NCBI GenBank assembly: GCA_016188835.1
Contig: JACPHB010000010.1
Span: 1 to 54,194 of the forward strand
Length of the DNA stretch: 54,194 nucleotides
Source of the DNA: Parcubacteria group bacterium
Lineage (GTDB): Bacteria > Patescibacteriota > Minisyncoccia > UBA10092
Direction: 5' to 3'
Shown here: positions 1 through 50,010 of the stretch, piece after piece
Layout of the letters: each line of letters starts with the position of its first letter
Numbering within the stretch: position 1 is the stretch's first letter
Position numbers and translations under genes: made by a program
The notes under the pieces: generated by a model
Told to the model about the DNA's origin: nothing
Database searches by the model: none
The model's input: the letters and a program-made list of their open reading frames with translations, nothing else

Positions 1-2403
1 AAATTTTTTACTAATCGCATCTTCCACTTCTTGGCGCGGTTTGGCATATTTTTGTCGGCATAATTCTCTTAATTTTTCCGCTTCATCCAAACTGCTGTCC
101 GGAGAATCTTCAGTCATAATGTTAAATGGTGTAGTAGTAGCACCATTAAGTAACAGCTTAACATAGGCATGGCGATTATCAATATTGATAAGATCGGATT
201 CGTTAAATACCGGTTCAAAATATTTAACTAAAAATTTAGCGTCTTCCGGGCCAATTCTAAACGAAGCTATGGAACCGGCATTGCCAAAAACCGAATCCCG
301 AATCTTATCGGTAAGCTGTCCAATAAATTGATGGGCTAAAATAAGGTTAAGGCGATATTTTCTGGCTTCGGCAAGAATAGTTGCTATAGAATCGGTCGTA
401 AAATTTTGAAATTCATCCATATAAAGATAAAAATCCCGCCGCGATTCCTCATTTCGCTCCTGCGCTCTCCTAAAAGCCGCCATTTGGAGTTTGGCGGTTA
501 TAATCAGCCCCAAAAGAGCGCTATTCATTTCTCCGATTCTGCCTTTTGAAAGATTAACAAGTAAAATTTTGCCGTTATTCATTATATCATTAAAATCAAT
601 TCCCGAACGGCTTTGACCAATTATATTTCTCATCATTGAATTTTCAACAAATCTGCCTACTTTACTAACCAAGTATCCGATCATCTCCGATTTGGTTTGC
701 TCCGACATTTTAAGCATTTCTTTTTCCCAAAAATCCCGCACCAAGGGATCGGTAACTTTTATGAGCAGTTGGCGGACAAAAGTTGGATCGGTGAAAATGC
801 GGGGAATATCAACCAAAGTTCCAGGGCTGTCTTCATCAGCCATTAACGTTAACATGGCATTTCTCATGCTGTGTTCAAAAACTGGACCAAGGTGTTCCGC
901 CAGAAAAAGTTTTTGAAAAGTGGCAATCATTTCTTGGATGGCAAAATCTTTTTCAGTCGCGGTGGCAGCTTCCAAAAGATTTAAACCTACCGGCCATTCA
1001 GTATCGGCCGGATCAAACAAAACCACATCGTTGTAGCGAGAGCGCGGAATAAGACCCAAAATCGCTTCAACCAAATCGCCATGGGGATCTATTACGCCAA
1101 TGCCGGCGCCGCTATCAATATCTTGTTTAATAAGATTTCTTAAAAGATAACTTTTTCCGGTGCCGGTTTGTCCGATAATATAAAGGTGGCGCCGTCGGTC
1201 AAGCGGATTTAATTTAATAATTGTTTCTTGATTTCTGAACTGGTTTCGGCCCAGAATCACGCCGGATGCCGGTAAAATCGCCGGCGGCGCGGCGGCCTTG
1301 GCTTTAACAAACCTTACTTTTGGCGTTTCTATTTTAATAATCGGAAAGTGAAAAATACTGGTTAATTCTTCTCCGGAAACCCAGATGCTTTCCGATTTAT
1401 TAAATAATCTGAAAGAAAAATTGTAAATTAAATTTTTTAAAATTCTTTTTTGCGGCCTAAAACTATAAAAAGAATTCAAATCCGGAAATTCAAACTGGGC
1501 AAAAGCGCTTTCAATGTTTGACAGTATTTGCGCCGCTTCTTCATCTGTTTCCGCCGATACCAAAATTCTAATGTTAACTTCAAATAAATTTTGCTTCGCT
1601 TTGTTATCAATGACATTAATAAGATCTTGGGTAAGCGGCGTTAACGTTTTGGGAAGTTCAGCGGATTTGTTGTTATCTTCCGATTTTTTAATGTTAAAAA
1701 ATTCTCTAAAGGCGTCAATAAAAGACAAGGGACTTTCTATTTCGTTAACAGCTTTATCTAAATGCTTACCCTGATACAGGTGTTTTATAACTTTTATGGC
1801 GTCGCTTTTTGATGAATATTTTGTCGGCCTAACTAAAATTTGAAGCGCCACTCCTTCGCCCCTGGCTTTAAGAGATGAAACGGCGTTAGTGATAAGGCCG
1901 AGGGTGCTGGCCTCAAGTTTTTTGTAGGTCTGGAACGGTAAAACATAATTGCGTTTTAATTTAAGCGTTGAGCCGGCGCTTTTTCCGCTTCTATTGAAAA
2001 TATTGTAATCGTTTATTGGTTCAATCTGGGCTTCCGGAAAAAATCCCTGAATTTGCCTTTGCATCGTATTTTGAAATTTTTTTGGAAGAGCAAAATAAAA
2101 GCCAATTTCCTCCCCTTCTTCCGGTACGGCAATTTCAAACACCATATATGGCTTGGGAGAAAAAAAACCGCTTTCTTTTTGTAAAATAGCGTTTAAAGAA
2201 TTGTAAAATTGCTCCATTATCAAAAGCTTTTCTTTTTCCTTATTAATGTCGGTTGATTCTAAAATTTTCGGAAAGCGAATTTCAAACAAAATAAAATTCA
2301 AAGAGCTGAAAATAATTCCTTTTCGCCAAGCCCTGTTAAACAAAAACCAAACAAACAATAAAACAATAGCGATTGCTAGAATAAATATTAGATAATAAAA
2401 CAT
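1..2403 (-). CDS. Fused membrane/N-terminal domain plus VirD4/TraG/TraD-like (type IV coupling protein family) P-loop ATPase. The C-terminus runs off the window; 801 codons are visible.
   Basis: This gene is absent from the ORF track because it has no stop inside the window. My own reverse-strand translation from the ATG at 2403..2401 stays open to base 1 (MFYYLIFILAIAIVLLFVWF...). It has Walker A IIGQTGTGKS (about 1150..1176), Walker B FYLYMDEFQNF, and ARKYRLNLILAHQFIGQL. The first ~390 aa parallel ORF 43567..44814 and the rest parallels ORF 41746..43452. Confidence 0.8.
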   Translation of the reverse strand, partial: MFYYLIFILAIAIVLLFVWFLFNRAWRKGIIFSSLNFILFEIRFPKILESTDINKEKEKLLIMEQFYNSLNAILQKESGFFSPKPYMVFEIAVPEEGEEIGFYFALPKKFQNTMQRQIQGFFPEAQIEPINDYNIFNRSGKSAGSTLKLKRNYVLPFQTYKKLEASTLGLITNAVSSLKARGEGVALQILVRPTKYSSKSDAIKVIKHLYQGKHLDKAVNEIESPLSFIDAFREFFNIKKSEDNNKSAELPKTLTPLTQDLINVIDNKAKQNLFEVNIRILVSAETDEEAAQILSNIESAFAQFEFPDLNSFYSFRPQKRILKNLIYNFSFRLFNKSESIWVSGEELTSIFHFPIIKIETPKVRFVKAKAAAPPAILPASGVILGRNQFRNQETIIKLNPLDRRRHLYIIGQTGTGKSYLLRNLIKQDIDSGAGIGVIDPHGDLVEAILGLIPRSRYNDVVLFDPADTEWPVGLNLLEAATATEKDFAIQEMIATFQKLFLAEHLGPVFEHSMRNAMLTLMADEDSPGTLVDIPRIFTDPTFVRQLLIKVTDPLVRDFWEKEMLKMSEQTKSEMIGYLVSKVGRFVENSMMRNIIGQSRSGIDFNDIMNNGKILLVNLSKGRIGEMNSALLGLIITAKLQMAAFRRAQERNEESRRDFYLYMDEFQNFTTDSIATILAEARKYRLNLILAHQFIGQLTDKIRDSVFGNAGSIASFRIGPEDAKFLVKYFEPVFNESDLINIDNRHAYVKLLLNGATTTPFNIMTEDSPDSSLDEAEKLRELCRQKYAKPRQEVEDAISKKF

Positions 2404-2411
2404 TTAAAGTT

Positions 2412-2621
2412 TTATTTTAATTTACCGGCTTCAACAAGCTTTTGATAAAAACGGTCTATTAAAGCGTCGTGAAAATCGTCTAAAAGATGGGGATCATTTT
2501 TTGCTTTAGCCGCTTGTATGGCTTCGCCTATCCCCTTCTCAAACGCGATTTGAATTAACGCTTCAATCTCTGGCGTATGTTGTTTTTCCTGTTCGGTAAT
2601 CATATAAATATATTTTACCAT
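2412..2621 (-). CDS. Small hypothetical protein directly upstream of the fused ATPase gene. The start is more likely Met7 at 2603.
   Basis: This 69-aa ORF is co-directional with the ATPase gene, and its stop is 8 nt before the ATPase ATG. No motif is recognisable. A TGgTAAAAT -10-like box lies 8 nt upstream of Met7. Confidence 0.45.
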   Translation of the reverse strand: MVKYIYMITEQEKQHTPEIEALIQIAFEKGIGEAIQAAKAKNDPHLLDDFHDALIDRFYQKLVEAGKLK

Positions 2622-2647
2622 AAATAAATTTTTGTTATAATAAGGTT

Positions 2648-4231
2648 ATGCCCAGCAAATATAACACTATCGCTTTAATTTTAATTATCACTATTGCGAT
2701 TTTTTTCAGGTTCTGGCAGTTTAATTCCATCCCACCCGGTTTATATCAAGACGAAGCGATGAATGGCGCCGACGCCTTGAGTTCTTTAGAAAGCGGAAAA
2801 CTTGGCGTTTTTTATACAAATAACAATGGCCGCGAAGGAATGATTGTTTGGTTAGATGCTTTAGCTATTAAAGTTTTTGGAACAGAACCATGGGTGTTAA
2901 GATTATTTCCCGCCCTTGCCGGAGTTTTGGCCGTTTTAGTGTTGTTTTTTCTGGCAAAAGAACTTTTTAGTGTTGAGATTGCCTTGGCTTCAAGCTTTTT
3001 TATGGCAACCAGTTTCTGGGCGGTAAATTTCAGCCGAATCGGTTTTAGAGCCGGACTTATGCTGCCAATCTTAATATGGTCTTTTTACTTCTTATATCGC
3101 GGCTTTAAATTATTGACATCCGATGTCGATAGCGACTATCGACATCGGATGTCAGATTTTATTACTGCTGGAATTTTATTCGGTTTGGGATTTTATACTT
3201 ATATTTCGTATAGATTCGCGCCGATTTTAGTCGCCGCATTTTTCATACCCTATCTTTTAAAACATCACATAAAAAACCTGTGGTTGGGATTTGCGATTTT
3301 CGCGATTACGGCTTTTATTGTCGCTTTACCGATAGGACTTTATTTTATTAATAACTCCGGCGACTTTTTCGGAAGAAGCAGGCAAGTATCTATTTTTTCA
3401 GCAGATAACCCCCTTAAGGCCTCTGTTTTAAGCATTGCGGCAACATTAGGAATGTTTAATATTATCGGAGACCTTAACTCACGGCATAATTTTGCCGGCT
3501 CTCCGCAATTGCTTTTGCCGGTGGGAATTTTATTTATTTTAGGGATTTTGATATGCGCCAAAAGAAGAAATTTGAGCGATAAGTTTTTATTGCTCTGGTT
3601 TTTTATATTTTTACTGCCAAATATTTTATCAACGGAGGGTAATCCCCACGCTTTGCGGGCTTTGGGAGCGATGCCTGCAGCAATGATTTTTGCCGGCATT
3701 GGATTAATTTGGCTTTATCAAAAAGTTAAAGGATATTTTGATAAAAAGATTAAAAATTTAGAACTTGAAGCTTACCGCGGCCAATTATTAAGAATTAAAA
3801 AAGAGGTCTTTATATTGCTATTCATTTTTTTATTGTTCATAAGCTTTTCTGAATTTAACAAATATTTTATTAAATGGGCTTCAAACATCCGCACCGCCGA
3901 TGCCTTTTCGCAAAGCCATGTTAAAATTGCCGACTACTTAAACCTATCGCCGAGAAACGTTAAAAAATATGTTATTTGGCCTGTGGATGATCGGCCAACA
4001 GAAAACGGCTTGCCGGTTTCCGCGCAAACCATATATTTCCTTACTTATGGAAAATCCGATATAAATTATGTGAAGTTCAATGAATCTGATAAAATAAATT
4101 TAGGGGCAAACGGTGCGATAATCGCTACGCTTAACTCCGATTTGGACTTGCTTCACGATTTAAATAAAAAATTTCCGAGCGGGAAAATTGAATTTATTTA
4201 TTTAAACACTCCGATTTTAATAGTTCCATAA
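2648..4231 (+). CDS. Polytopic membrane glycosyltransferase, GT39 / ArnT-PMT-like
   Basis: The 527-aa protein has many hydrophobic segments. The N-terminal loop PPGLYQDEAMNGADA carries the DE motif typical of ArnT/PMT-type lipid-carrier-dependent glycosyltransferases. Confidence 0.8.
   Translation: MPSKYNTIALILIITIAIFFRFWQFNSIPPGLYQDEAMNGADALSSLESGKLGVFYTNNNGREGMIVWLDALAIKVFGTEPWVLRLFPALAGVLAVLVLFFLAKELFSVEIALASSFFMATSFWAVNFSRIGFRAGLMLPILIWSFYFLYRGFKLLTSDVDSDYRHRMSDFITAGILFGLGFYTYISYRFAPILVAAFFIPYLLKHHIKNLWLGFAIFAITAFIVALPIGLYFINNSGDFFGRSRQVSIFSADNPLKASVLSIAATLGMFNIIGDLNSRHNFAGSPQLLLPVGILFILGILICAKRRNLSDKFLLLWFFIFLLPNILSTEGNPHALRALGAMPAAMIFAGIGLIWLYQKVKGYFDKKIKNLELEAYRGQLLRIKKEVFILLFIFLLFISFSEFNKYFIKWASNIRTADAFSQSHVKIADYLNLSPRNVKKYVIWPVDDRPTENGLPVSAQTIYFLTYGKSDINYVKFNESDKINLGANGAIIATLNSDLDLLHDLNKKFPSGKIEFIYLNTPILIVP
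3114..3154. repeat. Perfect 18-bp inverted repeat with a 5-nt loop inside the GT39 coding sequence
   Basis: The sequence is tgacatccgatgtcgata-gcgac-tatcgacatcggatgtca. It is in frame and encodes LTSDVDSDYRHRMSD. Confidence 0.9.
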
Positions 4232-4294
4232 AAAAACTCCCCCGCGCGTTTGCGAAGAAGGTGCTCGCACTCCATAGCTCATTGAGCGAAGGAG

Positions 4295-4370
4295 TGGTGG
4301 GCCCGGAAGGATTTGAACCTCCACAGTTCCGGTTATGAGCCGGGAGCTCTAGCCGTTGAGCTACGGGCCC
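4295..4370 (-). tRNA. tRNA-Met (anticodon CAT), CCA encoded
   Basis: The reverse complement folds by hand as GGGCCCG-TA-GCTC..GAGC-T-CCCGG-CTCATAA-CCGGA-ACTGT-GGAGG-TTCAAAT-CCTTC-CGGGCCC-ACCA. G1:C72 and the lack of the 3 G:C anticodon-stem pairs argue for an elongator Met or tRNA-Ile2 rather than an initiator. Confidence 0.9.
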
Positions 4371-4387
4371 CGCCATGGGAAAGAGAA

Positions 4388-4462
4388 TGGTGCCGCCGGA
4401 GGGACTTGAACCCCCAACTCTCGGCTTAAAAGGCCGCTACGCTGCCATTGCGTCACGGCGGC
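4388..4462 (-). tRNA. tRNA-Lys (anticodon TTT), CCA encoded
   Basis: The reverse complement reads GCCGCCG-TG-ACGC..GCGT-A-GCGGC-CTTTTAA-GCCGA-GAGTT-GGGGG-TTCAAGT-CCCTC-CGGCGGC-ACCA. Confidence 0.9.
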
Positions 4463-4485
4463 ACTAATTCTTGGCTTGTTGTGAA

Positions 4486-4570
4486 TGGTGCCGGCGGTCG
4501 GACTTGAACCGACACGAGCGATGCCCGCTCCGTCTTAAGCGGAGTGCGTCTGCCATTTCGCCACGCCGGC
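4486..4570 (-). tRNA. tRNA-Leu (anticodon TAA), long variable arm, CCA encoded
   Basis: The reverse complement reads GCCGGCG-TG-GCG..CGC-A-CTCCG-CTTAAGA-CGGAG, then a 15-nt variable arm, then TCGGT-TCAAGTC-CGACC..CCGGC-ACCA. Confidence 0.9.
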
Positions 4571-40666: not shown

Positions 40667-41743
40667 TTAATTAACGCCAAAACGACTCATGTCTAAGATT
40701 CTTCCTAATGACTCAACTTGGCCTATGATGCCAAAAGTAGGTATACCGAGATAGCAATTATCCTTTACCAATATAGCCGCACCCCCAGAATTTCCATGAT
40801 CTATTTTAGCGTCTGTAACGTAATATTTTCCTTCGTATCCTGATATTTTACCACTTGTAAGCGTCAGGCCGTATTTACTGCCTATTGCTGGAAACCCCAA
40901 AATTACTACGTCATCTCCGATTTTAACCACATTACGATAACAGATGCTTTTAACTATTGCATTTTTTTCAATAAAATCTAATGATAGTGGATCATTTGTC
41001 AAATTTAGTGTTCTATATTTTGGTTCTATGATCTGAGGTTTTAATATATACTCATCATCATCTGGATCTGTAGAAAGTTTACCTGCAAAAATACCTTGAA
41101 AAGTGACGGCATCGAAACCAATTGTTCCTGTTGGGTTCGTTAAAAAAGAAAGAAAACATAAGTCAGTACCTTCGACTACGTGTTGATTTGTTAATACAAT
41201 ATATTCTCCGTATATATTCTTAAATAATACCCCTGAGCCAGCAGAGCTGAGTTTCCCACCGCTAGCACAATTAACAAATGCTACGGACTTGCTCCAATAA
41301 TCAAATACATCGCTGGTACTATTTATAACTTGTCTTTGATTTGTAGGGTAACTTTGTTGTTGAGTTTGGTCTTGACTAGGCATTGAATTTTCGGCACTTA
41401 GAGTATCAGAAAAAAGAATTTTGTTTATATATCCAGATCCGCTAGATGGATTGCCCCAAGAAACTAAAATCCATTCTGGTAAATTATCGATTTTATCATA
41501 TGGAAGATTAATGAATGTATTTTTTGGATATTGTCCAATAATTTTACAATCTAATCCGGCGCATTCACGAATATTTGCAATGGATTTTAAATAAAATCGT
41601 GTAGTTTCAGATTTTTTAATGTTATTTTCTGGAGTATTGGAAATATTGCTGTAATAACCGGCAATGGAAATTAAGGCAAGAGCAATTAAAAGCCCGACTA
41701 AAATAATACTTGCCTTAAACCAATTTTCTTTTAACCAGTTCAT
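40667..41743 (-). CDS. Membrane-anchored trypsin-fold (S1) serine protease with an SH3b-like N-domain
   Basis: It has an N-terminal TM and an SH3-like segment (ANIRECAGLDCKIIGQYPKNTFINLP..WILVSW). The catalytic His context is LTNQHVVEG and the catalytic Ser context is DHGNSGGAAIL. Confidence 0.75.
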   Translation of the reverse strand: MNWLKENWFKASIILVGLLIALALISIAGYYSNISNTPENNIKKSETTRFYLKSIANIRECAGLDCKIIGQYPKNTFINLPYDKIDNLPEWILVSWGNPSSGSGYINKILFSDTLSAENSMPSQDQTQQQSYPTNQRQVINSTSDVFDYWSKSVAFVNCASGGKLSSAGSGVLFKNIYGEYIVLTNQHVVEGTDLCFLSFLTNPTGTIGFDAVTFQGIFAGKLSTDPDDDEYILKPQIIEPKYRTLNLTNDPLSLDFIEKNAIVKSICYRNVVKIGDDVVILGFPAIGSKYGLTLTSGKISGYEGKYYVTDAKIDHGNSGGAAILVKDNCYLGIPTFGIIGQVESLGRILDMSRFGVN

Positions 41744-41745
41744 TT

Positions 41746-43452
41746 TTATTTTCCAATTGTCTCTTCCAAAATCTTTTTTAGGCCTTCGGTATCAACGGTT
41801 TTACGCTGCCTGCCCTGCATAGCTTTTGGAGCTGGCGATTCTTGAGTTCGAGGCCTCAACTGCGATAAATGCACTGGTTTAACGGGTGGGCGCCTGCCTG
41901 CCATCGCCTGCGGCTCAGGTCGCTGGCGGGCAGAAGTTTTAGAAAAACAATCCTTACAGTAAACCGGCCTCGTCGGATCAGGTTTAAAAGGAACGGTTGT
42001 ATTTTTCCCGCAATTCGCGCAAACGGCGCTGAACATATTTTTTTTATCATCAAAAGCGCCACGCTCTCCGCTAGAGGGTCCGCGCGAAGATGTATTGTAT
42101 GACGGTAAATCGTAAGCGTCTCTTTGAGACGAACTTTGTGCTTCTGCCTGTAGAACACCTGTAGCAATAGATATGGTGCTTTCTACTTCGGCTTTTGGCG
42201 TGCCATAAGTAATTCTCGAGTACTCTATAATTTCATCGGCATAAGAAATTTCCGGTTTGGAATATGGCGGTAAAGTGATCGCCGAAAACGGCCTTGACGG
42301 AACGCCATCAATCAAAAGACGCAGATAAATATTATAATTAGGCAGATTAAGCAAATCTTGAGCCGTAATGTTAGGGCTAAATTGCTTTTCTTCCAAAAAT
42401 TCAACGTCTTCGCCGCCGGCTCTGAAAGCAATAAATGTGCCGACATTGCCAAAAATCGCGTCTTTTACCTTTACATTTTGGTCGTGAACCAACTGGCCGA
42501 TGTATTGATTGGCAATTGTAAGATCAAGGCGGAATTTTCTGGCTTCCGACAAAATGTCGGCAAAACTATCAGTAACAAAAGTTTGAAATTCGTCAACGTA
42601 AAGATAAAAATCTTTACGGTCTTCTTCCAAAATATCAACCCTACTCATGGCAGCAAGTTGGATTTTGGTGATAAGCATACCACCCAAGAGTTTTGTATTG
42701 TCTTCTCCGAGCCGCCCCTTGCTAAGGTTCATTATTACAATTTTTCCTTCATCCATGGCCTGCCGGAAATTAAACGAAGAAGTCGGCTGACCGATGATGT
42801 TTCTGATGATGGTTGCCGAACTGAACTGGCCGATTTTATTTTGAATGGCCGCCGTCGCTTCCTGTTCGTATTTTTGCTGATAAGCGGCATATTCCTGCGT
42901 CCAAAACGCTTTAATAACTGGATCAGATATTTGGTTCACGATATTTTTTCTAAATGCCTTATCGGAAAACATCCGGTTAACGCCAAGCAAAGTGGAACCT
43001 GGAACTTCTAATAGAGCTAAAATAGTGTTGTTTAAAATATATTCCATTCGAGCGCTCCAAACATCGGGCCAGATTTTTTTAAATACTCCCATAAGACCAG
43101 AGGCCACCAAGTGGCGCGCTTTAGCGTCTATGGTTTCTATGGCGTTAAAAGCTATCGGAAATTCCATATCGGCCGGATTGAAATAAATAACGTCTTTTAT
43201 CCGGTTTTCCGGAATATAATGAAGCAACCTCTCAGCCATTTCACCGTGAGGATCAACAAACCCCATGCCGCGGCCAGCCAAAATATCGGAAATCATCATA
43301 TTCATTTGCAAAGTGGTCTTGCCGGTGCCGGTCTGCCCGATAATGTACATATGGCGACGGCGATCGTCGGTTTTAATGCCGAACTTTTTCCGTTCGTTAC
43401 GGAAAGTCGTTTCGGCAAAAAATGTTATTTCGTTTTTATTTTCGTTATTCAT
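41746..43452 (-). CDS. VirD4/TraG/TraD-like P-loop ATPase with a C-terminal CxxC-x17-CxxC zinc ribbon
   Basis: It has Walker A IIGQTGTGKT, Walker B FYLYVDEFQTF and ARKFRLDLTIANQYIGQL. The tail contains CANCGKNTTVPFKPDPTRPVYCKDC. Confidence 0.8.
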   Translation of the reverse strand: MNNENKNEITFFAETTFRNERKKFGIKTDDRRRHMYIIGQTGTGKTTLQMNMMISDILAGRGMGFVDPHGEMAERLLHYIPENRIKDVIYFNPADMEFPIAFNAIETIDAKARHLVASGLMGVFKKIWPDVWSARMEYILNNTILALLEVPGSTLLGVNRMFSDKAFRKNIVNQISDPVIKAFWTQEYAAYQQKYEQEATAAIQNKIGQFSSATIIRNIIGQPTSSFNFRQAMDEGKIVIMNLSKGRLGEDNTKLLGGMLITKIQLAAMSRVDILEEDRKDFYLYVDEFQTFVTDSFADILSEARKFRLDLTIANQYIGQLVHDQNVKVKDAIFGNVGTFIAFRAGGEDVEFLEEKQFSPNITAQDLLNLPNYNIYLRLLIDGVPSRPFSAITLPPYSKPEISYADEIIEYSRITYGTPKAEVESTISIATGVLQAEAQSSSQRDAYDLPSYNTSSRGPSSGERGAFDDKKNMFSAVCANCGKNTTVPFKPDPTRPVYCKDCFSKTSARQRPEPQAMAGRRPPVKPVHLSQLRPRTQESPAPKAMQGRQRKTVDTEGLKKILEETIGK

Positions 43453-43465
43453 ATTTATGTTATGT

Positions 43466-43563
43466 GATTACAAAAATAATAAAAATAAAATTCTAGGTGG
43501 GGGCGAGCCGTTCGCCGTAGGCGAATGGGGCTAAGGAATTTTATTTTTATTATTTTTGTAATC
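43466..43563 (-). repeat. Long hairpin element, copy 3 (core inverted relative to copies 1 and 2)
   Basis: Perfect 28-bp arms (gattacaaaaataataaaaataaaattc and gaattttatttttattatttttgtaatc) flank the core taggtgggggcgagccgttcgccgtaggcgaatggggctaag. The element fills the gap between the two genes. Confidence 0.9.
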
Positions 43564-45138: not shown

Positions 45139-45402
45139 TCATTTAATCCCCAAAGAATATAATGCAAGTCCCACTATAATCCCTATTACAACTGGCCAAA
45201 AAAATTTATCCCAGATTGTTTTTTTGTTATTTTTAATTTTACTGCGCCCAATATTGTCTCCTTTCCCGGAATGGCTTTGGATTACAATATCTCTATTGGC
45301 ATTTAAGACTTTGGAAGGAGATTCAATCATAATTTTTTCTAAAACATTTTTCTTTCTACGCTCCAGTGTTTCTAATCGATTTTGGTGCATCTGTCTCGCC
45401 AA
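45139..45402 (-). CDS. Hypothetical protein with a C-terminal TM (87 aa; TTG start, or ATG at 45390)
   Basis: This is an ORF only. It overlaps the upstream ORF by 47 nt in another frame. Confidence 0.4.
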   Translation of the reverse strand: MARQMHQNRLETLERRKKNVLEKIMIESPSKVLNANRDIVIQSHSGKGDNIGRSKIKNNKKTIWDKFFWPVVIGIIVGLALYSLGIK

Positions 45403-45664
45403 GGGAGATGCTGTTTTTGTCTTTGATTCTTTTTATTTCTTCGTCTTCTTTTTCTCTTATATGTCTTTTTTCAAATTTTTCTAATAAATCTTTTGAAAGA
45501 TAGGCAAAAATGCTCAAAAAGAAAGCAATAACAACAATGTTCCAAAAATTAGGATTATAATTATTTTTACCAGACCAATCAAATAAAAATGCAGAACCTA
45601 GGCAAAATAAAATAAAGTAATAAATATGTCTATTATAATAAATTTTTTCTTGAATTTTTTTCAT
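45356..45664 (-). CDS. Hypothetical two-TM protein (102 aa)
   Basis: This is an ORF only, with two hydrophobic helices followed by a charged tail. Confidence 0.45.
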   Translation of the reverse strand: MKKIQEKIYYNRHIYYFILFCLGSAFLFDWSGKNNYNPNFWNIVVIAFFLSIFAYLSKDLLEKFEKRHIREKEDEEIKRIKDKNSISLGETDAPKSIRNTGA

Positions 45665-45731
45665 AAATTATCTCCCTAATTTTATTAACCTCGCTTCGAT
45701 AAATTCCTCCAAATCGCCGTTTTTAAAAATT

Positions 45732-45944
45732 TTAAGTGTTGGTCCATTTGTTATCGGAAATGCCAGCTTGTTTTAAAATTTCAGAAACAAGATGTTTTGA
45801 TATATCGCCCCTGTGAGGATTTGGAACTATAATTTTAAGATTCTTATTTTTCATTATTAAATGACGGCCGCCGGGATAAGGGCCGTCAAATTCCAAGCGA
45901 TGCAGTTTTTGGACTAATTTCTTCCAAGATATATTTTTAGGCAT
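45732..45944 (-). CDS. hicA: HicA-family mRNA interferase toxin
   Basis: The 70-aa protein contains GGRHLIMKN...IVPNPHRGDISKHLVSEILKQAGI, matching the HicA/YcfA pattern. Confidence 0.8.
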   Translation of the reverse strand: MPKNISWKKLVQKLHRLEFDGPYPGGRHLIMKNKNLKIIVPNPHRGDISKHLVSEILKQAGISDNKWTNT

Positions 45945-46182
45945 GTCTAACTGCTTGTTTGCGACTTACCTCAATCTTAAGTTCCGGTATTGAATCCCCG
46001 TCTTTAATCTTAAACAAGAGCCAATCCTCTAAGGCACTTCTTAGTTCCTCGCGGCAATCCTCAAGATTTTTTGTGTTTGCCCACACGCCTTTAAGGCCGG
46101 GAATTTTGCCAAAATAAGTGCCATCTTTAAGAATTTCATAAATGGCTTCTTTTAATTTTTTCGCGATATATTCACTAAGCAT
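45937..46182 (-). CDS. hicB: HicB-like antitoxin (N-terminal HicB fold only, no obvious DNA-binding domain)
   Basis: It contains YFGKIPGLKGVWANTKNLEDCREELRSALEDWL. It overlaps hicA by 8 nt. Confidence 0.75.
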   Translation of the reverse strand: MLSEYIAKKLKEAIYEILKDGTYFGKIPGLKGVWANTKNLEDCREELRSALEDWLLFKIKDGDSIPELKIEVSRKQAVRHA

Positions 46183-46218
46183 ATTTTATATAATACTATT
46201 TATGAGAAATTGTTTATG

Positions 46219-46548
46219 TTATTCCACTTTCTTATCAAAAAATTCGCCGCCTTGTTCAAGAACTTCTTTTCCCTCTTCGCTAAAAATTTCTAATTCGGCT
46301 AATTGTTCTTCGAAATCAGCTATCTCAAGTACTAATTCTGCAATAGTATAGCTAATAGCATCCGGATTTTGTTTTAATTCCTCAAGCTTTTTTCTTTTTT
46401 CCTCAATAGCGGCTTTTAATTCTTCAATATATTCATCCATGTCCTCTAATCTTTGCTTTGCCGCTTCCGGGGACATTAATTCTGCTTCGGATTCCGTTTC
46501 TGACCCATGTTCTTCCGGCTGATCAAATTTTGGTTCTCCAATATTCAT
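46219..46548 (-). CDS. Acidic coiled-coil hypothetical protein (109 aa)
   Basis: This is an ORF only and is very Glu-rich. Confidence 0.45.
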   Translation of the reverse strand: MNIGEPKFDQPEEHGSETESEAELMSPEAAKQRLEDMDEYIEELKAAIEEKRKKLEELKQNPDAISYTIAELVLEIADFEEQLAELEIFSEEGKEVLEQGGEFFDKKVE

Positions 46549-46575: not shown

Positions 46576-47613
46576 TTACACTAAAATGAAACGCTGGTCG
46601 TCGGTTTTTTTGAAAATTTTCCGATTTTGAAGATTTAAGAGAATGGTATTTTCTTTAACCAGCCGTTTATTCTGAACGGTTTTAACAATTTCTTCCTTGG
46701 TTAATCCAACTTTAGAATTTTTTAAAACAGAAACTAAAACATCGCGCACCGTGCCCGGCTCGTAGCCCCAGTCGCTTAAAGCGTATGTTCCCCTCCCAAC
46801 CAAAACAAACCTCGCGTCTTTAATAAGTTCGTTATGAACCGTTTGAGGATGGGCTTTGCGATCCGAAAAAACCGTTTTGTTTATTAAGTTCGCAACTTCG
46901 GTAAAGTGAAGTGGTTTTTTCTCTTTTTTAAAAACCAAATAGGCCTTATCTTTAACACCCCGCGGCGAGACCTCGGGCGAACTTATTAATCCCCATTCGC
47001 CGAAAGGATTCTGAGAAATCTGTCTGCAAAGTCCGACGTATGATTTTAAAGTTTGTTCGGTTAAATTTTTATTGGCTAATCCAGCGGCAGTTTTAAATAG
47101 GGCCTCATTTTGAAGTAGTAAATTTTGGCTGGCCAACTTTTCTTTCAAAGCGCCGGCTAAAGCGATCGCCTGATTATAATGCGCGGCGCCAAGCGCCCAA
47201 GCCGATCGCCAAACTGGAGTTTCCTTGAAATAAACAAATCTTCCATTTCCTAGGGCTAATGTAAAATTAATCAAATTTTCTTTATTTTTTTCTTTTAAAG
47301 AAAGAATTTCCGTTAATTCTTTTAAAAAATAATCCTCGCTTCTAACGCCGCCATGGGCCGTTAAATGCCGCTCTATCAGCTCAAAAACTGGCTTTATTGG
47401 CTCTAAAGCATTCTTATTGGTTAGCTGTTTAAGGCCTAGCGCTTCAATTTGCCTTACCCGTTCCCTGGTAATACCCATATTCTGGCCGATAGCTTCTAAA
47501 GTTTGGTAGGACATTGTGCGAAGGCCAAAACGTTTTTCTATAACTTCTCGAACCCTTGGATTGATAGTTTTAACTATTTCATCCAAAATATTTTTTAAAT
47601 TTTCTTCCGCCAT
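46576..47613 (-). CDS. Sigma-70 region-4 HTH plus HARE-HTH domain protein
   Basis: The N-terminus (VIEKRFGLRTMSYQTLEAIGQNMGITRERVRQIEALGLKQL) is region-4-like. The C-terminus (FTEVANLINK...HPQTVHNELIKDARFVLVGRGTYALSDWGY) is HARE-HTH-like. Confidence 0.7.
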   Translation of the reverse strand: MAEENLKNILDEIVKTINPRVREVIEKRFGLRTMSYQTLEAIGQNMGITRERVRQIEALGLKQLTNKNALEPIKPVFELIERHLTAHGGVRSEDYFLKELTEILSLKEKNKENLINFTLALGNGRFVYFKETPVWRSAWALGAAHYNQAIALAGALKEKLASQNLLLQNEALFKTAAGLANKNLTEQTLKSYVGLCRQISQNPFGEWGLISSPEVSPRGVKDKAYLVFKKEKKPLHFTEVANLINKTVFSDRKAHPQTVHNELIKDARFVLVGRGTYALSDWGYEPGTVRDVLVSVLKNSKVGLTKEEIVKTVQNKRLVKENTILLNLQNRKIFKKTDDQRFILV

Positions 47614-47673: not shown

Positions 47674-48576
47674 TCAATTTTTTTTTAGAATGTTAAACCA
47701 AGTTACTAAAAGCGGAGCCGCAATAAATATAGACGAATAAGTTCCGGAAAAAATACCAACCATAAGCGCCAATACAAAATATTTTAAACTCTCCCCTCCA
47801 AAAACATATAAAGCCGCCAAGGTCAATAAGACAGTAAGTGAAGTGTTAAGCGAACGGATAATAGTTTCGCGGATGCTTTGACTAACCAGTGGCATAAAAC
47901 TCAACTGGTTATAGCGTTTAAGATTTTCTCGAATCCTATCAAACACTACAATGGTATCATGAACCGAAAAACCGAGAATCACAAGAAGTGCGACGATAAA
48001 ATTAGCGCCGACCTCAATGCCATAAAAACGTCCCAAATAAGCGAATAAGCCGATGGGAATAATTAAATCATGAAAAAGCGCTATCAAAGTAACAACGCCA
48101 TAACGCCATGAACTTATCGGGCTTGATACTTTTCTAAAGGCCCAGGCGATATAAAGCGAAATCCCCAAAAGAACGATGATTATGGCTTTTATCGACTTCT
48201 GCTTTAGTTCGGCCCCGATAGTCGGCCCAATAGATGAAAATCTTCTTTCTTCAAATTGAATTTTATTTTTTTCCGCCTCAGCAGAAAGAATCTTAATAAT
48301 ATTTTGATGAGTCGCTTCATCGGTTTCCCTAAATCGCAAAACCGCGCCGTTTGATCCAAGTAGTGAAATTTTTAAATCGTTTAATTTAAGGGGCTTTAAA
48401 GAATCGGAAACTGAATTTAAATCGGGCAGAGCAGAATAATTAATTTCCAAAATTGAACCACCTTTAAAATCAATTCCAAACTGAAGGCCCCAAAGTGCTA
48501 ACGCGATAATGCTTATGGCAATAAAAATTACGGAAATGGCGTAAAAAATTTTTCTATTTTCAACAATATTTAACAT
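47674..48576 (-). CDS. secF: Protein translocase subunit SecF
   Basis: The 300-aa protein has a 6-TM pattern and lies downstream of secD. Confidence 0.9.
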   Translation of the reverse strand: MLNIVENRKIFYAISVIFIAISIIALALWGLQFGIDFKGGSILEINYSALPDLNSVSDSLKPLKLNDLKISLLGSNGAVLRFRETDEATHQNIIKILSAEAEKNKIQFEERRFSSIGPTIGAELKQKSIKAIIIVLLGISLYIAWAFRKVSSPISSWRYGVVTLIALFHDLIIPIGLFAYLGRFYGIEVGANFIVALLVILGFSVHDTIVVFDRIRENLKRYNQLSFMPLVSQSIRETIIRSLNTSLTVLLTLAALYVFGGESLKYFVLALMVGIFSGTYSSIFIAAPLLVTWFNILKKN

Positions 48577-48597
48577 GAATTAAGAATTAAGAAATTT

Positions 48598-50010
48598 TTA
48601 GATATTTTTAATCTTTACTCCCGTAAGCAAAGGCCATTTTGAAATAACAGCTTCCGGAAATAACTTTAAGAACGAACGAGTTACAAATATTGCCGAAAAC
48701 ATGCTTACAATAACGCCGATACCAAGGGTTAAGGCAAATCCTTTTATTATGCTAGTGGTAAAATAGTACAAAACCGCCGTGGTAATTAAAGTTGAAATAT
48801 TAGAATCGCGGATTGACGGCCAGGCGCGAGCAAACCCGTCATCAATGGCCATCCCAAAACCCTTCCCGGATCGGGCTTCTTCTTTAAATCTTTCAAAAAT
48901 AAGAATATTGGCATCAACCGCCATGCCGATTGATAAAATAAATCCGGCAACTCCGGCCAGAGTCATGGTTACCGGTATTAATTTAAATAAAGCCAAAACT
49001 AAGGCAGTGTAAATTAGGAGCGCCAGCACCGCCGCAATTCCAAAAAAACGATAGTATAAAATCATAAATACCGCCACCATCAAAAAGCCGAGCATTCCGG
49101 CAAACAAGCTTTTATCAAGTGAGTCGCGGCCTAAAGAAGCGCCTACCGAGTCCTGTGATATTAATTTAATCGGCACTGGCAGGGCGCCGGCGTTAAGGCG
49201 TTCGGATAATTTTTTTGCTTCTGCAAGAGTAAACTTACCGGAAATCACCGCCGAACCGCCGGCGATCGGTTCTCTCACAACAGGAGCTGAAATTGGCAAA
49301 CCATCAAGATAAATGCCAAGCGGCTTTCCAACATTTTTAGTTGTCAATTCTTCAAATATTTTCGCTCCCTCATCATCAAATTGGACGCTCACCGTCGGCT
49401 GATAAGTTGTTTGATCAAATTCTACTTTGGCGCTTTTTATATACTTGCCGTTTAAATTAGTTGGTTTAAAATACGGGTCAGTCAATAAATAATCTTTATT
49501 TTCGGCTTTTTGTTCGCTTAAGATTTTTTTAGTTTCGGCTTCATCTCTTGGTTCTTTAAATTCCAAAAACGGCGTCTCGCCGATTAAATCAATGGCCTCC
49601 GAAATATCTTTAATCCCCGCAAGTTCAACTATTAAACGCCATTCGTCGGCCGCGTGCTCAACTTCAACCACCGGCTCGCTAACGCCAAAAAGATTAACGC
49701 GCCGCTCAACAACATCGCGCAGTCCGGACATAGCTGAACTTACGTCCTGGCCCGCTACCCCAGATACGTCGGCTAAATAAGTCAATCGCGTGCCGCCCGC
49801 CAAATCAAGACCGAGTTTAAACGGCATATTAAAAAAACCGGGAATTTTTACCGGTGAAACAACATTTATTTTATCAATAGCTTTATCCCACCATGCCGGA
49901 TAAACAAAAAATGCCGCCAAAATGGCAATGACAAAAATTGCTAAAACGGCAAAACGCACTTTTAAAGCGGCGTCTAATTTGAATAATTTATCAGGAGAAT
50001 ATCCGGTCAT
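48598..50010 (-). CDS. secD: Protein translocase subunit SecD
   Basis: The 470-aa protein has a periplasmic P1-like domain and a C-terminal 5-TM bundle (GMAVDANILIFERFKEE). Confidence 0.9.
   Translation of the reverse strand: MTGYSPDKLFKLDAALKVRFAVLAIFVIAILAAFFVYPAWWDKAIDKINVVSPVKIPGFFNMPFKLGLDLAGGTRLTYLADVSGVAGQDVSSAMSGLRDVVERRVNLFGVSEPVVEVEHAADEWRLIVELAGIKDISEAIDLIGETPFLEFKEPRDEAETKKILSEQKAENKDYLLTDPYFKPTNLNGKYIKSAKVEFDQTTYQPTVSVQFDDEGAKIFEELTTKNVGKPLGIYLDGLPISAPVVREPIAGGSAVISGKFTLAEAKKLSERLNAGALPVPIKLISQDSVGASLGRDSLDKSLFAGMLGFLMVAVFMILYYRFFGIAAVLALLIYTALVLALFKLIPVTMTLAGVAGFILSIGMAVDANILIFERFKEEARSGKGFGMAIDDGFARAWPSIRDSNISTLITTAVLYYFTTSIIKGFALTLGIGVIVSMFSAIFVTRSFLKLFPEAVISKWPLLTGVKIKNI

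Follow-up and report, generated by a model that had tools for sequence, protein, structure and literature searches.

A fused DUF8128 and coupling-protein-like ATPase gene and its split paralog in a Parcubacteria group bacterium

The 54,194-nucleotide stretch analyzed here (the window; contig JACPHB010000010.1 of assembly GCA_016188835.1, from a Parcubacteria group bacterium) holds two adjacent genes, one for a protein of the DUF8128 family and one for a P-loop ATPase, and at its extreme left edge lies what an original prediction took for a second copy of the same system, encoded as a single fused gene that joins a "membrane partner domain" to the ATPase. This arrangement raises the question of whether the fused gene is real, what the fusion says about how the two domains work, and what kind of machine would be kept in one genome in two diverged versions. 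The fused gene and the split pair were compared with each other, with their relatives and with known secretion and conjugation ATPases, using 80 species-level split loci, 80 metagenomic fused loci (70 with enough flanking sequence) and 148 cluster representatives; contigs and loci from this material are denoted by L numbers.

An intact fused gene and an old paralogy

Translation of the window gives 801 stop-free codons on the minus strand, as had been claimed, and this frame is missing from the list of open reading frames (ORFs) solely because it leaves the window. The contig L001, 99.95% identical to positions 1..4306, carries the gene past base 1, an extension that had been suggested as a check: its protein has the same 801 residues followed by KTINE and a stop, for a total of 806 amino acids (aa), five of them outside the window, and contains no stop or frameshift between the two domains. 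The next gene in L001 is GtrA-like and starts after a 2-nt gap (fused stop ending at 1488, GtrA gene starting at 1485), followed by a convergent gene for a trypsin-like protease. The original prediction had raised, as an a priori possibility and with nothing further in its favor, that the long frame is an artefact of an assembly join or of an overlooked frameshift between two genes. This explanation can be practically discounted, as the identical protein is encoded on the independent contig L001, both domains are present in collinear order in all 120 relatives among the matches listed (median length 816 aa, most of them complete, drawn from numerous independent assemblies), the domain-junction residues P374, G385, and R390 are invariant in a 65-sequence alignment, and the AlphaFold2 (AF2) model is confident across the linker. 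The fused gene is real and intact.

Both halves resemble the split pair, in agreement with the original prediction. By BLASTP, residues 6-378 of the fused protein align with the split DUF8128 protein (26% identity, E 2e-25), including the quoted pair ELTSIFHFP... / ELATIYHYP..., and residues 389-798 align with the split ATPase (40% identity, E 2e-105), including DRRRHLYIIGQTGTGKS and FYLYMDEFQNF. The claim of two diverged copies in this genome is likewise borne out, and the same is seen in a relative, whose contig CAZBVM010000001.1 holds both paralogs (P0020, P0126, P0250).

Fused and split architectures are both widespread in Patescibacteria. In the species-representative genome collection, at least 583 matching stretches encode a DUF8128 relative, and such relatives amount to 1,292 representatives at 50% clustering. 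Fused DUF8128-ATPase proteins of ~800-840 aa occur in Azambacteria, Portnoybacteria, and Parcubacteria, while the split type consists of a stand-alone DUF8128 protein of ~415 aa and an ATPase of ~550 aa with a CxxC-x17-CxxC Zn finger, the ATPase gene coming directly after the DUF8128 gene in ~70 of the 80 split loci. The phylogeny of fused versus split forms, proposed earlier as a check, separated the two cleanly: in neighbour-joining trees of the N-terminal module and of the ATPase, all 30 of the 30 fused sequences fell into one clade that had no split member inside. Since this bipartition is congruent in both trees, the two forms are ancient paralogs whose modules co-evolve, and not the outcome of a recent fusion. 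The comparison with phage and VirB4 proteins suggests that the fused state is ancestral, the tree itself being unrooted.

Two further traits connect the modules. The C-terminal tail of the N-terminal module (EEL..H.P...P...PP..LP) is kept even where it does not serve as a covalent linker, and an independent re-fusion within the split clade (L068, 5242-8292) has produced a 1016-aa protein, Zn ribbon included. Together with the adjacency in split loci and the congruent trees, they uphold the earlier suggestion that membrane domain and ATPase act as one machine; from fusion versus adjacency, co-evolution and the retained docking tail, a single functional unit of DUF8128 and ATPase is supported at the sequence level. 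The description as a Rosetta-stone fusion stands insofar as the fusion is genuine and informative; it is not a novel event, since the gene belongs to an old and widespread paralog that is plausibly the ancestral form. As variations in gene number, tandem pairs of fused-type genes were seen in two loci (L159, 242-6143; L171, 4947-10564) and an additional ATPase gene after the split pair in another (L020, 3576-6999).

The family extends to viruses, with relatives in 63 phage records, 61 of which are Bacillus phages. In gp156 of phage G and gp27.4 of SPO1, DUF8128 is followed by the ATPase, collinear with the window protein at an identity of ~22% and with no transmembrane helix. The former comes after the VirB4-like gp155 (L185, 3243-7385), and the latter overlaps gp27.3, a Replic_Relax (relaxase-like nicking) protein (L184, 3747-7284). 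These pairings suggest conjugation-like DNA-processing modules, and their resemblance to type IV secretion systems (T4SS) and DNA processing is the best hint so far that members of the family act on DNA. The relatives found in IMG/VR viral contigs are ATPase-only and have no DUF8128.

Domain make-up and predicted fold

The family is already catalogued, as DUF8128 in Pfam and among the orphan homologs of type IV coupling proteins (T4CP) (PMC12102498), and no function is assigned to it in Pfam or PHROG; the searchable literature contains no mention of DUF8128. In the precomputed annotation, PF26449 is assigned to the identical L001 protein and to all listed homologs, and phrog_5156 spans the whole fused protein. 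The coordinates of all features are collected in Table 1.

A hydropathy scan of the fused protein shows a single hydrophobic segment (aa 1-19/25) with basic residues after it, so that by the positive-inside rule the bulk of the protein would be cytoplasmic. With just one transmembrane helix and a cytoplasmic ATPase, DUF8128 should lie in the cytoplasm as well, and the protein would be tethered to the membrane with its mass inside the cell. The "membrane partner domain" of the original prediction holds for the membrane anchor; the remainder of that half is a cytoplasmic domain of ~330 aa, i.e., an anchored scaffold and not a membrane domain.

For the ATPase half, three Pfam models scored above their cut-offs (TrwB_AAD_bind, 37.1 bits vs. 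20.5; T4SS-DNA_transf, 33.5 vs. 20.1; DUF87, 37.8 vs. 23.2), the FtsK_SpoIIIE model stayed under its own (15.9 bits, cut-off 24), and the NCBIfam T4CP equivalog models were far under theirs (e.g., conju_CD1115, 40.9 vs. 250). The three T4CP-type passes together with the equivalog failures place the protein in the superfamily and not as an ortholog of any named T4CP.

Structure prediction gave a mean confidence (pLDDT) of 86.6 for the full fused protein and of 76.5 for the split DUF8128 protein. When compared with the PDB by Foldseek, the split DUF8128 model matched at E<1e-3 solely TrwK/VirB4 of plasmid R388 (13 chains at E<=3e-4, a 14th at 2e-3), and no other P-loop ATPase was matched in this search; as a model without the ATPase matches TrwK/VirB4 alone, the part of VirB4 that it resembles would be the N-terminal domain, outside the ATPase. 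With the full fused model, full-length TrwK/VirB4 came first (E 1e-15, ~900 columns) and HerA next. The ATPase half of this model aligned with TrwB over ~410-460 columns, spanning almost the entire 411-427-residue chains (TMt 0.62-0.67, root-mean-square deviation (rmsd) ~5 Å, E ~1e-11). Judged by position, the insertion at aa 482-595 is probably the counterpart of the all-alpha domain of TrwB.

Several points weigh against a VirB4-type N-terminal domain. The AF2 models were built on alignments of 65-70 sequences, and the whole-chain TM-scores are low (0.3-0.37), which in these models suggests differing domain orientations. The likeness of DUF8128 to the VirB4 N-terminal domain is one of predicted fold alone, and a link to VirB4 or TrsD at the level of sequence was rejected, with no signal in three kinds of comparison: the DUF8128 profile had no match among PDB sequences, per-member Pfam scans at E<=10 returned nothing relevant to VirB4 or TrsD, and hhalign comparisons with Agrobacterium tumefaciens VirB4 and pGO1 TrsD were insignificant, although single-sequence templates make this a weak test. 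With the same kind of templates, comparisons with A. tumefaciens VirD4 and with pGO1 TrsK and TrsE were insignificant or weak.

The structural matches bear on a second identity for the protein, namely a divergent VirB4-type assembly ATPase, resembling a VirB3-VirB4 fusion, in place of a T4CP. It would account for full-length TrwK/VirB4 as the top whole-chain match and for the exclusive match of the N-terminal domain to VirB4, and the N-terminal transmembrane helix recalls VirB3-VirB4 fusions. We nevertheless consider it improbable, because T4CP families pass while VirB4 Pfam families go unmatched, nearly all of the ATPase half can be superposed on TrwB, phage G encodes a VirB4-like protein separately, next to its family member, and Patescibacteria have separate VirB4 and TrsD proteins (PMC12102498).

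Table 1. Features of the fused gene, the split paralog and their neighbors in the window (nucleotide positions; residue numbers refer to the respective protein)
Feature	Position	Strand	Basis or remark
Fused gene, aa 1-801 of 806	1..2403	-	Predicted transmembrane anchor + DUF8128 + T4CP-like ATPase; final 5 codons and stop beyond base 1
Predicted N-terminal transmembrane helix, ~aa 1-25, then R/K	2329..2403	-	Hydropathy; AF2 long helix at 2-35
DUF8128 (PF26449), ~aa 35-350, alpha/beta, VirB4-N-terminal-domain-like predicted fold	1354..2301	-	Precomputed Pfam annotation; Foldseek TrwK/VirB4
Pro-rich linker/docking segment, aa 351-381, ...HFPIIKIETPKVRFVKAKAAAPPAILP...	1261..1353	-	Kept as C-terminal tail of split N-protein
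T4CP-like P-loop ATPase, aa 382-801	1..1260	-	Pfam; TrwB superposition
Walker A GQTGTGKS, aa 411-418	1150..1173	-	Invariant or >=90% conserved, 65 homologs
Walker B YLYMDEF, aa 659-665	409..429	-	D663 and E664 invariant, 65 homologs
Predicted all-alpha insertion in nucleotide-binding domain, aa 482-595	619..960	-	AF2 secondary structure; TrwB alignment ~420 columns
69-aa soluble helical protein	2412..2621	-	Stop 8 nt before fused-gene start
Split part 1: transmembrane anchor + DUF8128, 415 aa	43567..44814	-	BLASTP, AF2/Foldseek, locus survey
Split part 2: T4CP-like ATPase (aa 1-440), CxxC-x17-CxxC Zn finger, R/P/Q-rich tail	41746..43452	-	
Intercistronic hairpin between split genes	43466..43563	-	~29-bp stem, dG -40.8 kcal/mol, z -8.5
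Sigma-70 region 4 + HARE-HTH (RNA polymerase delta-like) protein	46576..47613	-	Co-directional upstream neighbor of split pair

Partners and genomic neighborhood

The 69-aa soluble ORF upstream of the fused gene, mentioned only in passing by the original prediction, accompanies the fused copy as a conserved partner. Among the 70 fused loci with sufficient flanks, 48 have a homolog immediately upstream on the same strand, mostly at gaps of -4 to +15 nt, and among the 80 split loci none has one. Over a core of ~52 aa, the small protein of the window shares 44-46% identity (E 1e-13 to 1e-15) with the C-terminal end of 145-157-aa proteins. The genes of these proteins sit immediately upstream of orthologs of the fused gene, whose products are 47-48% identical to that of the window. 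Furthermore, in 23 of the 148 cluster representatives the small domain forms the N-terminal part of a fusion with DUF8128(-ATPase), in proteins of 900-930 aa where complete, and none of the 14 triple-fusion representatives scanned has an N-terminal hydrophobic segment. Judged by these sequences, the small domain replaces the transmembrane helix in the triple-fusion lineages, which amounts to a second and more informative Rosetta-stone fusion. At its other end, the 69-aa ORF starts (2621, minus strand) 26 bp (2622-2647) from the divergent start of a PMT_2-family glycosyltransferase gene (2648, plus strand); with so short a gap, either the promoters would have to reach into coding sequence or translation of the small ORF would really begin at the internal Met7.

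The split copy has a different neighbor. A gene for a protein with sigma-70 region 4 and HARE-HTH domains is located directly upstream and co-directional in 73 of the 80 split loci, preceded by SecDF in 48 of them (in the window, SecF and SecD occupy 47674-50010), and this neighborhood may point to a protein that works together with the split paralog, or else to very stable synteny. The Zn ribbon proposed as a possible downstream partner is present as a treble-clef CxxC-x17-CxxC finger inside the split ATPase (aa 471-506, nt 41935-42042), where a basic tail follows it, and is restricted to the split paralog. In the window, ~1.7 kb of small ORFs (45139-46548) separate the HARE-HTH gene from the split DUF8128 gene, and the two are adjacent in L086, an 87%-identical relative. 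These ORFs encode an acidic coiled-coil protein, an overlapping pair of 81 and 70 aa and two small transmembrane proteins; the pair resembles HicB/HicA-type toxin-antitoxin genes by eye and had no match in an NCBIfam scan. The hairpin between the split genes is a perfect inverted repeat with 28-nt arms and a GC-rich loop, unique in the window and missing from L086, and could be an intercistronic attenuator, a stabiliser or a small inserted element.

Other candidate components were rejected. Each copy has a gene for a trypsin-like protease (Trypsin_2) no more than two genes away (40667-41743 on the minus strand of the window, and 103-795 on the plus strand of L001), and the protease had been named earlier as a possible part of a wider system. 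This does not hold as a third component, since a protease accompanies a single one of the 80 split loci and none of the 80 fused ones; L086 has no protease beside its split pair, and the two proteases of this genome do not match each other by phmmer at E<=1e-4 and are not close paralogs. In two Portnoybacteria-like loci, the gene immediately after the fused gene encodes a 115-aa protein with several transmembrane segments (L087, 12515-12865; L089, 12528-12875), and a ClpB-like gene comes next; this pair is missing here and does not recur in the 80 fused loci.

The wider surroundings of the fused gene are those of a chromosome core. The order PBP-GreA-aaRS-PMT ... GtrA-DnaX is kept down to orthologs that are 47-48% identical, and GtrA and DnaX recur in ~25-27 of the 80 fused loci, which is read as synteny. 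Within ~10 kb, neither the scanned window ORFs nor the annotated orthologous loci include a T4SS-type ATPase, VirB protein, relaxase, or integrase. The fused unit is a vertically inherited core gene and belongs neither to a mobile element nor to a T4SS locus. In the same part of the window, genes for tRNA-Met, tRNA-Lys, and tRNA-Leu are clustered (4295-4570, minus strand) between two PMT_2-family glycosyltransferase genes.

This context also bears on whether the ATPase is carried as cargo by a mobile element or a phage, or belongs to an anti-phage defense system, as could be read from the full-length coverage by phrog_5156, from the phage records and from weak PADLOC matches to mad8 and HerA. 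Such a role is very improbable: the chromosomal housekeeping context is phylum-wide and speaks against a mobile element, no integrase, relaxase, or defense partner was found within ~10 kb, and the IMG/VR relatives have no DUF8128. The defense reading was likewise rejected, as PADLOC returned generic P-loop matches alone, with none for DUF8128 or the 69-aa protein.

Proposed function and likeness to known systems

A 2025 survey found 5,713 VirD4-type T4CP homologs in 2,918 Patescibacteria genomes, ~2 per genome, merely 148 of them near virB4, and raised possible exaptation of these homologs; in Ca. S. epibionticum, the t4cp gene is non-essential and the T4SS genes are essential (PMC12102498). 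Taken with the results above, we somewhat favor a role that is not physically tied to a T4SS locus, i.e., an "exapted" T4CP, which appears likelier than classical T4SS coupling. In the mechanism that we propose, positions 1..2621 on the minus strand would form a two-gene operon of an Azambacteria-like Patescibacteria chromosome. The first gene would encode a 69-aa helical adaptor or regulator and the second a membrane-tethered motor of 806 aa, built from a transmembrane helix, DUF8128, a Pro-rich linker and an ATPase of the VirD4/TrwB type (FtsK-HerA superfamily). The N-terminal side of DUF8128 is the most likely binding site of the small protein, whose gene is coupled to the fused gene and whose domain is fused there in place of the transmembrane helix in other lineages. 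In the split copy, the Pro-rich tail would dock DUF8128 onto the ATPase in trans. By analogy with T4CPs and VirB4, the unit would oligomerise at the inner membrane face, where ATP would drive the moving or handing over of a polymer, most likely DNA or nucleoprotein; T4CP family membership, the phage pairings, the Zn ribbon with its basic tail and the HARE-HTH partner are the hints towards such a substrate.

The chief competing explanation is a bona fide coupling protein that serves a Patescibacterial T4SS of the monoderm type, the genes of which lie elsewhere in the genome. Such a protein would bring substrates to the T4SS channel, and DUF8128 would dock it at the inner-membrane complex of VirB4, VirB3, and VirB6. 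This explanation would agree with the T4CP Pfam scores and the TrwB-like nucleotide-binding domain, a VirB4-like N-terminal domain could make the membrane-complex contacts of VirB4, and the family member of phage G is paired with a VirB4-like gene; moreover, T4SS are widespread in Patescibacteria and their T4CP genes are frequently remote from virB4 (PMC12102498). We regard it as possible and rather unlikely, given the scarcity of homologs near virB4 and the dispensability of t4cp where T4SS genes are essential, the presence of two paralogs in each genome with separate conserved partners that are not T4SS proteins, the forms without a transmembrane helix (triple fusions and phages) and the housekeeping synteny of the fused gene.

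Some observations tell against the exapted motor that we prefer. As T4CP genes often lie away from virB4, distance alone is compatible with T4SS coupling; the NCBIfam equivalog scores leave the protein far from the named T4CPs; the conserved neighborhoods (SecDF-HARE-HTH and GtrA-DnaX) may be a matter of frozen gene order instead of function; and for every member of the family, substrate, oligomeric state, and partner binding are inferred.

A bolder extension, speculative and unlikely, is that DUF8128-T4CPs constitute a third branch of the VirB4/VirD4 ATPase radiation with a VirB4-type N-terminal domain, a "missing link" that would form a T4SS-independent, phylum-wide core machine of adaptor, scaffold, and motor, whose two paralogs would move DNA or nucleoprotein at the membrane and which jumbo and SPO1-like phages of Bacillus would have borrowed for genome processing. 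If it were true, Patescibacteria might rely on the machine for scavenging nucleic acid or passing it on as part of their host-dependent lifestyle. The role of the ~two orphan T4CP homologs per Patescibacteria genome is an acknowledged open point (PMC12102498), and in this locus they are distinct and ancient paralogs. The two copies point to candidate complexes, one of the 69-aa protein and the fused motor, the other of the HARE-HTH protein, DUF8128 and the Zn-ribbon ATPase, and the models give a structural clue to the relationship between VirB4 and coupling proteins. New here are the predicted VirB4-like fold of the N-terminal domain, a separate conserved partner for each paralog and the triple fusion, while the fused and split observation is routine comparative genomics.

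Among known systems, canonical T4CPs have an N-terminal domain with two transmembrane segments. The window protein shares with the VirD4/TrwB/TraD group (Pfam TrwB_AAD_bind, T4SS-DNA_transf, and TraG-D_C) the Walker A and B motifs, the predicted all-alpha insertion, a TrwB-like nucleotide-binding domain and an N-terminal membrane tether, and its relatives are named [quoted passage not shown] by NCBI. It differs in having one transmembrane helix and the ~330-aa DUF8128 ahead of the nucleotide-binding domain, in staying under the NCBIfam equivalog cut-offs, and in its gene, which has no T4SS or relaxase neighbors, sits in core synteny, occurs as ~two paralogs per genome and comes with a small partner of its own. 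With VirB4/TrwK, its best whole-chain structural match, it shares at the level of predicted fold an N-terminal domain followed by a P-loop C-terminal domain. It differs from VirB4 in lacking matches to Pfam CagE_TrbE_VirB, AAA_10, and P-loop_TraG, in an ATPase half that scores as T4CP and in a gene located away from VirB3-, VirB6-, and VirB8-type genes. In monoderm and Patescibacterial T4SS, TrsD is a stand-alone protein remotely homologous to the VirB4 N-terminus and encoded next to virB4 (PMC12102498), and this N-terminal domain as a separate gene parallels the split DUF8128 and ATPase pair. FtsK/SpoIIIE and HerA belong to the same P-loop superfamily, with DUF87 above its cut-off and HerA among the top structural matches, but the window protein has another N-terminal domain and scores under the FtsK_SpoIIIE cut-off; a general Pfam scan, which included no search aimed at them, gave no HerA HAS-barrel, FtsK gamma-domain, or N-terminal family with multiple transmembrane segments. 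Phage G gp156 and SPO1 gp27.4 (phrog_5156, PF26449) are members of the same family. The fused gene is a variant of the T4CP/VirB4 kind within an uncharacterised family and not a new type of system.

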